Position numbers and translations under genes: made by a program. The notes beneath the pieces were generated by a model. It saw nothing but the letters and a program-made list of their open reading frames with translations, had not been told where the DNA came from and searched no databases. Shown here in pieces: positions 33,432 through 59,139 of a stretch of 59,139 nucleotides of DNA. The stretch lies in the IMG/VR virus record IMGVR_UViG_3300043580_000025, one strand, 5' to 3'. The DNA is from a virus. Positions within the stretch are counted from its first letter, which is position 1. Every line of letters starts with the position of its first letter.

Positions 33432-33874
33432 CCGCACTAACCATTGCAGAACGCCAATCGCTTTACCGCGCGCGACGCACCTTAGAAGGCAAGACCGAAG
33501 TGCGTGGTATATACTTGCAGCCAGAGCAACACGCAGCGTTGCGCGCAATTGCCCGCACGCAGATTAACCAAACCAACAGAAAGGTACCACTCATGCAACC
33601 CAGCGTCGGCGCTTTGCCGCAAACCAAGAACATGATCTTCGTCCCGGCGCACATGGCGCTTGTCGAGACGGACGCACCCACCATCGCCGTCAAGCTGGGC
33701 GAGAAGGGATATTGGCCGGTGTACCACCCGAGCCATGAAGAGTTGAACGAGCGATATGCAAGCGAAGCGGTGCTTCGATCCGCAGTGCAGGCGTCGATGT
33801 TTGGATGGGATGCACCTATCGCACGCGAAGCAATCGAGTGGCTCGCAGAAGCAGACGATGCGTCGGCCGCGTGA
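33428..33874 (+). CDS. hypothetical protein (148 aa) with possible internal start at 33593
   Basis: In-frame CAGAAAGG box 9 nt before internal ATG 33593. Confidence 0.65.
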   Translation: MTALTIAERQSLYRARRTLEGKTEVRGIYLQPEQHAALRAIARTQINQTNRKVPLMQPSVGALPQTKNMIFVPAHMALVETDAPTIAVKLGEKGYWPVYHPSHEELNERYASEAVLRSAVQASMFGWDAPIAREAIEWLAEADDASAA

Positions 33875-34502
33875 CAATCAGCGCAGCAGGGTCTACGCCT
33901 GGGAGAAGTTCGTCACAAAAACGACGCACTGGACCGGTACCTTCAAGACCCTGGAAGAGTGCCAAAACTACCTAACCCCGATCTGGCGCACGGAGCGCGG
34001 GCGCTATGGGCGCGCTAGGGTTGCCCCACCGCCCATCGAACGGCCCGCCTGGGGCCAGCGTAGCGCCATTGCCCACCATTCCCACCGCATTACCCTGCCG
34101 ACCTGGGCGCGCAATCCGTGGGTCATCCTCCACGAGGCCGCGCACCGGCTGACACCGCGCGATGAAGCGCATGGCCCACGCTTTGTGGGCGTCCTGATGG
34201 GCCTTGCCTGCCGCCACCTGGGATACAACGCCGACGAGCTTATGGCTGCGGCCGATGACATGGGCGTAAATTATCATGTGCGCTCAATAGGCAGCGTGCC
34301 GGTGCTTGCGCCGCGCGGTCCATCGTGGCACGTCGAGCGCGCTGTGCGCGACGAAGGACCGATGACGGAAATGGATATCGCGTGCTGGTGCAATCTAACC
34401 TATTTGCAAGTGCGCGGAGCTGCGCTACATTTGATCAAAACGGGCCGCGCGAGATGGCTGCGTAAGAAATTAGTGCTGCTATCAAACGAAGGTACAACAT
34501 GA
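33858..34502 (+). CDS. HExxH metallohydrolase-like protein (SprT/TIGR04338-like)
   Basis: RVYAWE near N-terminus and ILHEAAH motif; start ATG 33858 rather than track start 33756. Confidence 0.6.
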   Translation: MRRPRDNQRSRVYAWEKFVTKTTHWTGTFKTLEECQNYLTPIWRTERGRYGRARVAPPPIERPAWGQRSAIAHHSHRITLPTWARNPWVILHEAAHRLTPRDEAHGPRFVGVLMGLACRHLGYNADELMAAADDMGVNYHVRSIGSVPVLAPRGPSWHVERAVRDEGPMTEMDIACWCNLTYLQVRGAALHLIKTGRARWLRKKLVLLSNEGTT

Positions 34503-35176
34503 GTCCAGTGGTCATCGGGAACGCAACGCTCTACCTGGGCGATTGCGCTGAGATACTTTTATCCTTGCCAAAGGTCGACGCGGTCATCACCGATCCGCCT
34601 TATGGCATCGGCGCATCGTCCAAGAAGTTTATCAACGGCACCTCGAAATGGAGCAAGGACTACTACGAGGACGTTTGCTGGGACACTGCGCCGCCCGATA
34701 ACATGTTGATCAAACTGGTCGTCGCAATGGGCGAGGTCGCGATCCTCTGGGGCGGCAACTACTTCGACCTCCCGCCTTCGCGCTGCTACCTCGTCTGGGA
34801 TAAAATGATCCGCGACTTCAGCTACGCCGACTGCGAGTTCGCCTGGACGAATCAAGACGCCAACGCTCGCATCAAATCGCTGAGCACCGCCGCTGCAACT
34901 GGCGACGGCCGCGTCCATCCAACGCAAAAACCACTCGAGCTTATGCACTGGTGCATCGCGCAATGCAAAAACAACCCGCAGACCGTGCTCGACCCATTCA
35001 TGGGGTCAGGGACCACCGGCGTTGCTGCTGTACAATTGGGCCGCAGCTTTATTGGGATTGAGCGCCTGCCAAAGTACTTCGACATCGCTTGCGAGCGAAT
35101 CGCGCTGGCCTACGCGCAGCGTCCCCTCTTTGAGCCCGAACCATTTAAACCACCCGTGCAACTGAGGATCGAATGA
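34499..35176 (+). CDS. DNA methyltransferase 1 (beta-class, DPPY; probably m6A)
   Basis: VDAVITDPPYGIG (motif IV), HPTQKP, DPFMGSGTTG (motif I) in beta-class order. Confidence 0.88.
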   Translation: MSPVVIGNATLYLGDCAEILLSLPKVDAVITDPPYGIGASSKKFINGTSKWSKDYYEDVCWDTAPPDNMLIKLVVAMGEVAILWGGNYFDLPPSRCYLVWDKMIRDFSYADCEFAWTNQDANARIKSLSTAAATGDGRVHPTQKPLELMHWCIAQCKNNPQTVLDPFMGSGTTGVAAVQLGRSFIGIERLPKYFDIACERIALAYAQRPLFEPEPFKPPVQLRIE

Positions 35177-35922
35177 ATAGCCCCGTCATCGTCGGAGACG
35201 CAACGCTCTACCTGGGCGATTGCCGCGAGATACTTCCATCGCTGCCAAAGGTCGACGCCGTCATCACCGACCCACCCTACTCGGAGCAGTGCCACACCGG
35301 GCACGACGCTGGCTCGCGCGCTGGCAACGACGGCGCTGTGCGCTCGACACTTGGCTACTCGGCGCTGACCCAGGCCGACGTGCTTGCGCTGGCCGACGCC
35401 TACGTCGCTGCGTCGGTGTCCTGGGTCGTCTGGATGACCGATAGCAACCTCGCCATGCAAGTGCGCGCAGCGTTGGAGCAACGGGGGCTTTGTACATTCT
35501 CGCCGCTGCCGTTCTACCAACCTGGACGCAGCATTCGCCTATCGGGCGACGGGCCGTCAAGCTGGACGGACTGGATCGTCGTCGCACGCACAAAGGCCGC
35601 GCACAAATGGGGCACGCTGCCTGGAGGCTACATCGCTGGGCCTGGATGGAATGATAAGGCACTCATGGGCGGCAAACCAACCGCGCTCATGGACGCACTG
35701 GTCATGGACTACACGCGCCTGGGCGCGACGGTGCTCGACTCGCACATGGGCGCTGGGACGACCGGCATCTCTTGCATGAGGACCGGCCGCAAGTTCATCG
35801 GCTGCGAGATAGACCCTGCGACCTTCGACATCGCCTGCCACCGCATCGAGCAAGCGTACAACCAACGGCCGCTCTTCATGCCCGAGCCGCTGAAGCCGCA
35901 AGAGCAACTCGGACTGATCTAA
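35173..35922 (+). CDS. DNA methyltransferase 2 (beta-class, DPPY, divergent middle)
   Basis: VDAVITDPPYSEQ, GGKPTALM, DSHMGAGTTG. Confidence 0.8.
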   Translation: MNSPVIVGDATLYLGDCREILPSLPKVDAVITDPPYSEQCHTGHDAGSRAGNDGAVRSTLGYSALTQADVLALADAYVAASVSWVVWMTDSNLAMQVRAALEQRGLCTFSPLPFYQPGRSIRLSGDGPSSWTDWIVVARTKAAHKWGTLPGGYIAGPGWNDKALMGGKPTALMDALVMDYTRLGATVLDSHMGAGTTGISCMRTGRKFIGCEIDPATFDIACHRIEQAYNQRPLFMPEPLKPQEQLGLI

Positions 35923-36612
35923 ATGCACAAAGTCATCATCGAGAACGCGACGCTCTACCTGGGCGATTGCCGCGACATCCTGCCGACGCTGGGCAAAGTC
36001 GATGCCGTCATCACCGACCCACCTTATGGCATCAACTACGGGAAGCTGATGAAGGGAAAAGGCGACGGGAACGGCGGCTTAGATCGCAATCGATGGAAGG
36101 ACTACGCTGCGTTCGACTGGGACACTGATCGCCCAAGCCGCGAGGTCTTTGACTTGCTGCGCGACGTCAGCAAGCAGCAGATAATTTGGGGCGGCAACTA
36201 CTTCGCTGATCTTCTCCCGCCATCCATGCAGTGGTTGGTGTGGGATAAGTGCCAAACGTTTTCGCTCGCTGACTTTGAGCTTGCCTGGACGTCGCAGCAG
36301 AAAGCCGCACGCCTCTTCCGGCTATCTCGCCCAGAAGCCCTGCAAGATGGTCGCCAGCACCCGACGCAGAAGCCGATTGCGTTGATGAAATGGTGCATTG
36401 CAATTGTCAGCGACGCACTCGAGATCGTTGATCCATTCATGGGATCAGGGACCACCGGCGTTGCTGCAGTCGAAATGCGCAAAGGCTTCATCGGCATCGA
36501 GCGCGAGCCTGCGTACTTCGATATCGCGTGCAAGCGCATCGCGCACGCCTACAACCAGCCGCCACTCTTTGACGAACCAATGAATCCGCAAGAGCAGATC
36601 GGGCTAATTTAA
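35923..36612 (+). CDS. DNA methyltransferase 3 (beta-class, DPPY)
   Basis: VDAVITDPPYGINYG, HPTQKP, DPFMGSGTTG. Confidence 0.88.
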   Translation: MHKVIIENATLYLGDCRDILPTLGKVDAVITDPPYGINYGKLMKGKGDGNGGLDRNRWKDYAAFDWDTDRPSREVFDLLRDVSKQQIIWGGNYFADLLPPSMQWLVWDKCQTFSLADFELAWTSQQKAARLFRLSRPEALQDGRQHPTQKPIALMKWCIAIVSDALEIVDPFMGSGTTGVAAVEMRKGFIGIEREPAYFDIACKRIAHAYNQPPLFDEPMNPQEQIGLI

Positions 36613-36626: not shown

Positions 36627-36662
36627 CTGGGCTGGATTTAACGCAAACAGAAAGGCACCAAC

Positions 36663-36902
36663 ATGGCAAAGATTAAGCTCAAGACCTTCAAAGGCATCGT
36701 GGCCGCGCGCCAGAACGCGCTGTACACAATGGCAAACGGCGACAAGGTCTACGCAATGGGCGGCGAGATGGCCGAAGTCGGCGCAGAGATCAAGTACGTC
36801 GCAAGCCCCTCCAGCCGCACGGTACAAATGGGCGGCAGGTCGAACGCCTGGGCCGAGAGCCGCGACGACTACAGCAAAATGTTTTTCAGGCAATACGAAT
36901 GA
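36663..36902 (+). CDS. hypothetical protein (79 aa)
   Basis: ATG after CAGAAAGG box. Confidence 0.65.
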   Translation: MAKIKLKTFKGIVAARQNALYTMANGDKVYAMGGEMAEVGAEIKYVASPSSRTVQMGGRSNAWAESRDDYSKMFFRQYE

Positions 36903-57965: not shown

Positions 57966-59139
57966 ATGAGTGAGCAGCAGACTTTTTTCTGGGACGACCT
58001 TCCCGTCAGCGAGCCGCAGCCCAGGAAGCGCGGCAATAACAACCGCCCCACGCCGCCGATCCCGGATACAGGCTGGGTAGCCCCCGGCGCTTTCCCCCGG
58101 CTGGCCCAGGCCCGCGTTCTGGGCCTGGACACCGAGACAAAAGACCCGGCGCTGGTCGAGAAAGGCCCAGGCTTCCGCCGCGCCGGTGAAGAGGGCGCGC
58201 ACATCGTGGGCATGAGCGTCGGCACGCCGGACGGTGGGCGCTGGTACTTCCCGATGCGCCATGAGATCGCGCCGGAACAAAACCTCGACCCGGCGCACGT
58301 GCTGGCCTGGGCGCGCGATAACATTTGCACCGAAGGCCAAGCCAAGGTCGGTGCGAATCTATCCTACGACGTCGACGCGCTATGGTCCGAAGGCGTGCAG
58401 GTGACGGGACCATTCATCGACGTCCAGCACGCGGAAGCGTTGATCGACAGCAATCGATTCACCTACAGCCTCGACGCGCTGGGCGAGTCGTACCTGGGCG
58501 AGACGAAGGTCAAGACGGACCTCGCCAAATGGATCGAGCTTGCGTATGGCGACGCCGACAATTATCGCGCGCATATCTGGCACGCACCGCCTTGCTTGGT
58601 CGGTCCCTATGCCGAAGGCGACGTCGACCTGCCGCTGCGCATCTGGGATAAGCAGAAGCCGATCCTAGAGCAGCAGTTGATGATGGGCCTGTTCGATCTA
58701 GAGACCGAACTGATCCCGATGATGATTGAGATGCGGCAGAACGGCGTGCGCGTCGATATCGAATACGCGAAGCGCCTGGACGACGAATTGACCGCAGGCA
58801 TCCTTGAGGCCGACGTCCGCTTGCAGGCGGTGTCCGGTGGCGTGCTGCACAATCTCGACCCGGACAAGGACATCAGCAAGGGCGATCTCGCTGCGCTATT
58901 TGACGCGGCCGGTGTTGCCTATCCCAAGACGGCCACAGGCCAGCCATCGTTCGTCAAGGAATGGCTCGAGCGCGTGCAGCACCCGGCTGGCGAGCTAGTG
59001 CGACACCGCCGCCAGCTTCAGAAGTACCGCAACACATTCGTGCGCGCCTACGTGCTTGACAAGCATATCAACGGTCGCTTGTACGCGCTCTTTCATCAGC
59101 TTAAAGGCGACGAGAATGGTGCGGTCACCGGCCGCTTTT
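57966..59139 (+). CDS. DNA polymerase, family A, N-terminal 3'-5' exonuclease part (open at the window end; continues at base 128 through the junction)
   Basis: ATG 57966; LGLDTETKD Exo I motif; no stop before the window end; in frame with 1..999. Confidence 0.92.
   Translation, partial: MSEQQTFFWDDLPVSEPQPRKRGNNNRPTPPIPDTGWVAPGAFPRLAQARVLGLDTETKDPALVEKGPGFRRAGEEGAHIVGMSVGTPDGGRWYFPMRHEIAPEQNLDPAHVLAWARDNICTEGQAKVGANLSYDVDALWSEGVQVTGPFIDVQHAEALIDSNRFTYSLDALGESYLGETKVKTDLAKWIELAYGDADNYRAHIWHAPPCLVGPYAEGDVDLPLRIWDKQKPILEQQLMMGLFDLETELIPMMIEMRQNGVRVDIEYAKRLDDELTAGILEADVRLQAVSGGVLHNLDPDKDISKGDLAALFDAAGVAYPKTATGQPSFVKEWLERVQHPAGELVRHRRQLQKYRNTFVRAYVLDKHINGRLYALFHQLKGDENGAVTGRF
59013..59139. repeat. 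Circular-assembly overlap, identical to 1..127
   Basis: 127/127 identical. Confidence 0.95.

Follow-up and report, generated by a model that had tools for sequence, protein, structure and literature searches.

The 59,139-nucleotide (nt) stretch of viral DNA analysed here (IMG/VR record IMGVR_UViG_3300043580_000025; hereafter the window) carries on its + strand three consecutive genes of putative DNA methyltransferases, directly downstream of a gene for an HExxH protein. The three open reading frames (ORFs), termed copies 1, 2 and 3, have the positions and joints that an earlier note on this DNA had given them, encoding proteins of 225, 249 and 229 amino acids (aa) and being packed with 4-nt overlaps or direct abutment: ATGA overlaps join the upstream gene to copy 1 and copy 1 to copy 2, and the TAA stop of copy 2 abuts the ATG of copy 3. 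The three copies are co-expressed through translational coupling, and the triple array is stable, with many samples together yielding at least 24 contigs that contain it.

34499-35176, + strand: copy 1, 225 aa; DPPY at 34592-34603, motif I FMGSG at 34997-35011, HPTQKP present
35173-35922, + strand: copy 2, 249 aa; DPPY at 35269-35280, motif I HMGAG (His for Phe), MGGKP in place of HPTQKP
35923-36612, + strand: copy 3, 229 aa; DPPY at 36016-36027, motif I FMGSG, HPTQKP present

The protein alignment displays all the common elements that had been described, namely the N-terminus ATLYLGDC..IL..L.KVDAVITDPPY, the (F/H)MG(S/A)GTTG motif and the Q(R/P)PLF...Q(L/I) tail, and it likewise places HPTQKP in copies 1 and 3, where copy 2 reads LMGGKP. 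Pairwise protein identity among the three lies in the range 41-55%, with 41% between copies 1 and 2 and 55% between copies 1 and 3, and the largest difference between the copies indeed falls in the region holding the target-recognition loops.

The assignment of all three proteins to the beta-class DPPY DNA methyltransferases was upheld by family matches and motif order. PF01555 (N6_N4_Mtase) scored 88.3, 54.5 and 72.0 bits for copies 1, 2 and 3 against a gathering cutoff of 26.7, and phrog_67, annotated as DNA methyltransferase, matched them with E values of 5e-48, 1e-35 and 1e-45. In class beta, the motif IV (D/N/S)PP(Y/F/W) lies N-terminal to the FxGxG of motif I, and the two flank the recognition region (PMC7544214); in all three copies the motif IV DPPY (residues 32-36) precedes motif I, the FMGSG of which lies at about residue 167 in copy 1 and 172 in copy 3. 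The D/N form of motif IV, as in DPPY, is the adenine-N6 type (PMC7544214), so that by analogy DPPY favours N6-adenine as the target of all three enzymes. Additionally, AlphaFold models were built from family alignments for copies 2 and 3, with a predicted local distance difference test score (pLDDT) of 82 and a predicted template modelling score (pTM) of 0.83 for copy 2, and a pLDDT of 92 and a pTM of 0.87 for copy 3. Foldseek placed both models nearest to the solved class beta enzymes CcrM (6pbd), M1.HpyAVI, TTHA0409, M.BceJIV and M.MboIIA with a probability of 1.00, a template modelling (TM) score of about 0.6 and E values from 1e-10 to 1e-14; M.PvuII and M.RsrI were also among the matches, and the top match of copy 3 was CcrM 6pbd. 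Identity of the three copies to any characterised enzyme reaches about 26% at most.

The three copies are not orthologues of CcrM: they score 74.5, 48.4 and 68.3 bits for the CcrM equivalog model (NCBIfam NF050803), far under its cutoff of 830, and they lack the non-specific DNA-binding domain at the C-terminus of CcrM, stopping about 20 residues past the catalytic domain. The neighbouring genes, the HExxH protein and small ORFs, gave no match to a nuclease family that would point to an adjacent cognate restriction endonuclease. Because no neighbour resembles a nuclease, the three genes are classed from their sequences as orphan methyltransferases, although one of the neighbours might still encode a nuclease of unrecognisable sequence.

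The earlier note had read the array as a local triplication followed by divergence of specificity, and this was not borne out. For each copy, identity is higher with genes of unrelated phage contigs (70-77%) than with the other two copies (41-55%); the closest full-length relatives of copy 1 outside this phage are 75-77% identical, its 91% top match being the copy1/copy3 hybrid described below, and those of copy 3 are 70-75% identical. A tandem triplication should make the copies mutual closest relatives, but in a maximum-likelihood tree of 92 sequences each of them fell inside its own clade, with support by the SH-like approximate likelihood ratio test (SH-aLRT) of 100 for the copy 2 clade (on a branch of 1.58), 96-99 for that of copy 3 and 86 for that of copy 1. 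Forcing the three copies to be monophyletic cost 437 log-likelihood units and was rejected by the approximately unbiased (AU) test at p = 0.0001, while forcing only copies 1 and 3 together cost 123 units and was rejected more weakly (p = 0.034). The conserved ends and diverged centre, which had been taken as a further sign of triplication, turned out to be general to the family: an alignment of 136 members contains 107 pairs, almost always between different contigs, with identity of at least 93% over a 45-residue C-terminal part but of at most 62%, down to 37%, over the core.

The surroundings of these genes in other phages bear on the same question. A single family member within 4 kb is the state of 181 of the 192 IMG/VR loci that carry the family, the other 11 having two or three such genes; close tandems elsewhere are three genes in a row in one contig (L086, with gaps of 513 and 115 nt) and a pair with a 4-nt overlap in another (L115), and at a third locus (L176) a possible second match lies 21 nt away, with just one intact gene resolved. 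In genus-level relatives of the phage (L218-L241, from IMG/VR), the HExxH protein is 77-82% and the MuF protein 74-82% identical and both flanks are retained, but the 3-3.8 kb between them hold unrelated small ORFs without any methyltransferase gene. The slot occupied by the array, just after the HExxH gene, is a hypervariable site for cargo genes. Therefore, owing to the closer relatives elsewhere, the separate clades, the AU rejections and the relatives without the array, the sequence comparisons show that the array was assembled by acquisition of three old lineages at this hypervariable spot, not by local triplication, and the triplication reading is largely refuted.

The genes carry traces of contact with one another in the form of short identical DNA patches.

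34526-34546, 35203-35223 and 35950-35970, + strand: 21-nt stretch common to all copies, encoding TLYLGDC; grows to 26 nt for copies 1/2 and copies 2/3
35006-35028 and 36445-36467, + strand: 23-nt stretch of copies 1/3, encoding SGTTGVAA of motif I; crossover site of the hybrid gene

The 21-mer ACGCTCTACCTGGGCGATTGC, already pointed out in the earlier note, is exact at 34526, 35203 and 35950 and occurs these three times only, with 0 expected in shuffled sequence. Its seven codons have a joint probability of 0.003 under the codon usage of the phage, and two further matching copies correspond to p ~1e-5; none of 67 TLYLGDC-coding stretches of other phage loci is identical to it, all of them differing by 1-7 mismatches. 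The 23-nt patch shares rare codons between copies 1 and 3 (p ~1e-5), and 36 of 36 other loci have at least 4 mismatches in it; further identical patches between the copies measure 19-26 nt. As this identity is explained neither by codon usage nor by protein conservation, the short patches look like exchange (gene-conversion) tracts between the neighbouring genes. Gene conversion over the whole termini was considered and rejected, since synonymous codons at conserved residues agree to about 55% alike in the N-terminal, middle and C-terminal parts, and identity is confined to the short patches. As a separate observation, the overlapping pair of class beta genes noted above (L115:3995-5406, IMGVR_UViG_2788499801_000001; 4-nt overlap) combines a DPPY/HPTEKP enzyme of adenine type with an SPPY/HPARFP enzyme that is PvuII-like and probably acts on N4-cytosine; their last ~40 residues are identical as protein and ~80% identical as DNA. 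This hinted at C-termini evolving together within one phage, but the C-terminal part is near-invariant family-wide anyway.

A natural recombinant of the array occurs in a contig of the same phage, L242 (ENA ERZ27257245 k141_1610848, 2,088 nt), which has 98% and 99.5% nucleotide identity on its two sides.

L242:1190-1864: copy1::copy3 hybrid gene, 224 aa, the sole methyltransferase after the HExxH gene, as seen in the alignment with both copies

The hybrid consists of copy 1 residues 1-185 followed by copy 3 to the end, and the switch lies within the 23-nt patch. The 1,439 bp missing from the contig comprise the whole of copy 2. Downstream of it come the usual 50-nt spacer and the gene that normally stands after copy 3, and the passage from three genes to one by deletion is the simple direction. 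An exact-match scan of Joint Genome Institute (JGI) metagenome contigs returned 0 hits for the hybrid junction and 0 for the intact copy 1 junction used as control, that collection being without this phage, which makes the scan uninformative.

Copy 2 deserves separate consideration. Its central segment had been called largely unrelated to those of the other two; it is very diverged, but the fold of the model identifies it as a homologue and not as an unrelated insert, the order of strands and helices being kept, with residues 91-103 forming an additional helix alongside two long loops in the centre. Of 7,506 hits, the 119 relatives listed are all 64-76% identical to copy 2 over the full length. 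A search of 50,697 deposited phage genomes found no relative above 35% identity, and a scan tuned to close relatives gave a single partial match, of 60%, in 185,579 representative genomes of bacteria and archaea. Copy 2 belongs to a large, distinct subfamily that is seen here almost only in phage contigs, with a variant cofactor motif and no characterised member. The subfamily also has a conserved DPPYSExCHxGHD segment together with the His in motif I.

In the 28 neighbourhoods of copy 2 relatives that were examined, the relative is mostly the sole gene of its kind nearby, and the phage contexts differ, including a place adjacent to DnaB, a lambdoid early region and the vicinity of an Acb2/Tad1-like gene. 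One such relative stands in a lambdoid-like early region with NinB and VRR-NUC genes and has a C5-cytosine methyltransferase gene (PF00145) 0.8 kb downstream (L010:5549-6748). In an unrelated phage contig, a solitary copy 2 relative is followed, two genes downstream, by a gene of the Acb2/Tad1-hairpin family (anti-CBASS/Thoeris sponge-like; L008:6689-6988).

Based on these findings, we consider the following account probable as a whole. Three orphan methyltransferase genes of three long-separated subfamilies were gathered into the hypervariable spot downstream of the HExxH gene. Like other class beta enzymes, each of the three most likely works as a homodimer; it would move a methyl group from S-adenosylmethionine to the N6 of adenine within a recognition sequence of its own while the phage DNA replicates, and progeny genomes would thereby resist several host restriction systems. 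In addition, the copies would have swapped short DNA tracts at the motif-coding segments, and the same patches may also act as crossover points, as at the switch of the hybrid.

Three self-methylation specificities directed against host restriction are plausible, given the palindrome avoidance of the genome, the variable accessory block in which the array lies, and the occurrence of a copy 2 relative near an anti-defence gene. Under a maximal-order Markov model of the whole genome, GCCGGC, CGATCG, CCGCGG, GGCGCC and CCATGG are each absent (0 vs 13-36 expected), AAGCTT occurs 2 times vs 25 expected and ACCGGT 5 times vs 30 expected, while TCGA is over-represented; the avoidance of palindromes is a signature of restriction pressure and lends indirect support to this role. 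Two routes to the targets themselves failed: the site counts (GANTC 167, GATC 321, and the over-represented TCGA) do not identify recognition sequences, and the identities to NCBIfam and PDB entries are too low to assign them by homology.

Several considerations weigh against this account. The activity, target base and recognition sequences of all three enzymes are inferred, and with at most ~26% identity to characterised enzymes their specificities are not predictable; two of the three copies could have the same motif. Copy 2 has a His for the cofactor-contacting Phe of motif I, the hybrid is known from a single 2,088-nt MEGAHIT contig, and phage methyltransferases can serve other roles, such as mimicry of CcrM or Dam near replication genes (PMC5537653).

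The last of these points leads to the alternative that the methyltransferases serve mainly ends other than classical restriction evasion, either by CcrM- or Dam-like mimicry controlling replication, packaging or expression, or by marking DNA against BREX-type defences that read methylation. Among phages of Alphaproteobacteria, such enzymes are often CcrM mimics (GANTC) with genes close to those for replication (PMC5537653, PMC7139368), copy 2 relatives adjoin DnaB-type helicase genes in two contigs (L010 and L012), and CcrM is the best structural match. Nevertheless, three different enzymes exceed what regulation seems to need, the CcrM equivalog model scored only 48-75 bits vs 830 and the C-terminal DNA-binding domain of CcrM is missing, 6-bp palindromes are strongly avoided in the genome, as is typical under restriction pressure, and the genes lie in the variable accessory block, not in the replication module. 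We therefore regard this alternative as unlikely, with a modest chance of being correct.

It is improbable that one or more of the copies are inactive relics. Copy 2 is the obvious candidate, having HMGAG for FxGxG and MGGKP for HPTQKP, and some cloned phage methyltransferases were without detectable activity in heterologous Escherichia coli (PMC5537653). The HMGAG and MGGKP variants are, however, at least 95% conserved over 120 subfamily members, and the copy 2 ORF is intact in at least 23 contigs and gave a confident model. This conservation, the intact frame and the confident fold indicate purifying selection on a working protein, and the conserved variant motifs argue for copy 2 being a working enzyme.

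Class beta methyltransferases have been argued to be obligate dimers in which one subunit recognises the site and the other methylates it (PMC7544214). With three paralogues on one coupled message and with near-identical N- and C-terminal modules, co-translated copies might then form heterodimers and act on combinatorial or asymmetric sites instead of having three independent specificities. Against such partnership, the family member is alone within 4 kb at 181 of 192 loci and so must work by itself there, and a single-gene hybrid variant of the phage exists, which leaves heterodimers only a slim chance. Finally, a local triplication of one ancestral gene in the phage lineage with fast divergence of the target-recognition region, although it would suit the same-orientation tandem, the common termini and the short identical DNA stretches, is very improbable in view of relatives elsewhere that are closer than the neighbours, three clades, the AU rejections, pairwise agreement of synonymous codons of only ~55%, relatives of the phage without the array, and ends that are conserved family-wide.

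The array of acquired orphan enzymes preferred here can be set beside known systems. Phage orphan class beta enzymes (PF01555, PHROG 67), such as p097 of Rhizobium phage 16-3 and those of Sinorhizobium and Mycobacterium phages, resemble the window's genes in the order of motif IV before motif I, the length of ~220-250 aa, the lack of an adjacent restriction endonuclease and the early or accessory location; they differ from the three abutting genes with a copy 2 of a separate subfamily. CcrM of Caulobacter crescentus (6pbd) and M.BceJIV of Burkholderia cenocepacia (8urk) have the catalytic fold and DPPY in common with them, as well as HPTQKP as in copies 1 and 3, but identity to the window copies is 17-26% and the recognition of GANTC and GTWWAC is not transferable. 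Several methyltransferase genes per genome are also known from sinorhizobial (pro)phages, with 4 in Phi3_AK83 and 3 each in Phi2LM21 and PhiPBC5 (PMC5537653). There, too, the genes are presumed to widen protection or regulation, although they are of mixed classes and scattered, whereas the window's array is of one family, uninterrupted and coupled, and bears traces of exchange. The mod genes of Type III systems, which are class beta, undergo allelic exchange of target-recognition domains, with conserved 5' and 3' ends, a variable centre and recombination in the conserved parts. Unlike these, the partners in the window are tandem phage orphan genes, and the sole event seen is a deletion that fused two neighbours.

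Stacking of methyltransferases is an ordinary phage strategy and orphan class beta enzymes are common in phages; particular to the window are the uninterrupted, coupled array of one family, the traces of exchange with the natural hybrid, and the copy 2 subfamily. The short-patch exchange and the hybrid are what is new here, a small but concrete addition. Phage orphan methyltransferases are a main route of escape from restriction and complicate host prediction and phage therapy. The locus shows that three pre-existing specificities may be stacked in one coupled operon, and that conserved motif-coding DNA gives neighbouring genes short patches of homology through which tracts can be exchanged and working-looking hybrids arise. 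The copy 2 subfamily would be a useful target for assigning specificity from methylomes.

A further feature common to the three proteins is the motif in their C-terminal tails.

35117-35131 (copy 1, QRPLF), 35863-35877 (copy 2, QRPLF) and 36556-36570 (copy 3, QPPLF), + strand: tail motif, just past the conserved C-terminal region

All three copies keep the Q, L and F of this motif, and two of them end with EQ(L/I)GLI. In the models of copies 2 and 3 the tail follows the last helix and is without secondary structure; the tail of copy 1 stands at the aligned position. Across the family, Q..[LM]F falls within the last 32 residues of 284 of 355 members (~80%), vs ~2% in shuffled tails. The bacterial beta-clamp-binding pentapeptide QL(S/D)LF is typically C-terminal and in an extended region (PMC9690074), and the tail fits its key positions Q1, L4 and F5, position 2 not being Leu, which makes this a resemblance at the level of the motif. 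Speculatively, the Q-x-x-L-F tail, often followed by a terminal Q-x-G-L-[LI], might bind the beta sliding clamp and so tether the enzymes to the replisome. We hold this to be a doubtful idea; the tail could equally be structural or serve dimerisation, the phage has its own family-A-like polymerase, and a literature search returned no link between an adenine methyltransferase and a clamp-binding motif. If true, nascent phage DNA would be methylated ahead of host restriction, in a bacterial-virus counterpart of the DNMT1-PCNA coupling.

The array belongs to a larger unit and sits within a complete phage genome, the remaining features of which are as follows.

33593..33874, + strand: small ORF, 93 aa from an internal ATG; first gene of the coupled five-gene unit, with the AACAGAAAGG leader box upstream
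33858..34502, + strand: HExxH (HEAAH) protein, 214 aa, putative metallohydrolase; ends in an ATGA overlap with the start of copy 1
1-999 and 57966-59138: DNA polymerase gene (PHROG 17), split over the window ends

The HExxH gene that had been placed upstream of the array is present and coupled to it, but gene callers start it at 33858 (214 aa), not at 33756. Its product had no Pfam or PHROG match and a weak one to TIGR04338 HEXXH_Rv0185 (E 4.8e-9, 36 bits, under the cutoff of 90). As relatives of the phage retain the HExxH gene without methyltransferases, its coupling to the array is incidental. A functional link between the two was rejected on the same ground; moreover, no HExxH relative was found beside family members elsewhere, and the gene upstream of the copy 2 relative in L008 is unrelated.

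A leader box of the AACAGAAAGG type, which precedes + strand genes, stands before 33593 and the next one only after copy 3, at 36642-36662, ahead of the gene at 36663. No match to a promoter consensus or a + strand terminator consensus was found between the two boxes; therefore, the unit consists of the small ORF (itself without a family match), the HExxH protein and copies 1, 2 and 3. This unit is the last transcription and translation unit of a + strand accessory block of small genes at ~28.9-37.1 kb (~8 kb), which splits the minus-strand late genes; the array forms the end of this block and lies outside the replication module.

The split of the DNA polymerase gene over both ends marks the window as the entire genome, circularly permuted and ~59 kb long, of an uncultured tailed phage. 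A search of the window for tRNA genes gave none, and its other phage genes include those for the portal, the large terminase, a MuF-like head protein, the major head protein, the scaffold, the tape measure, a primase and a helicase.

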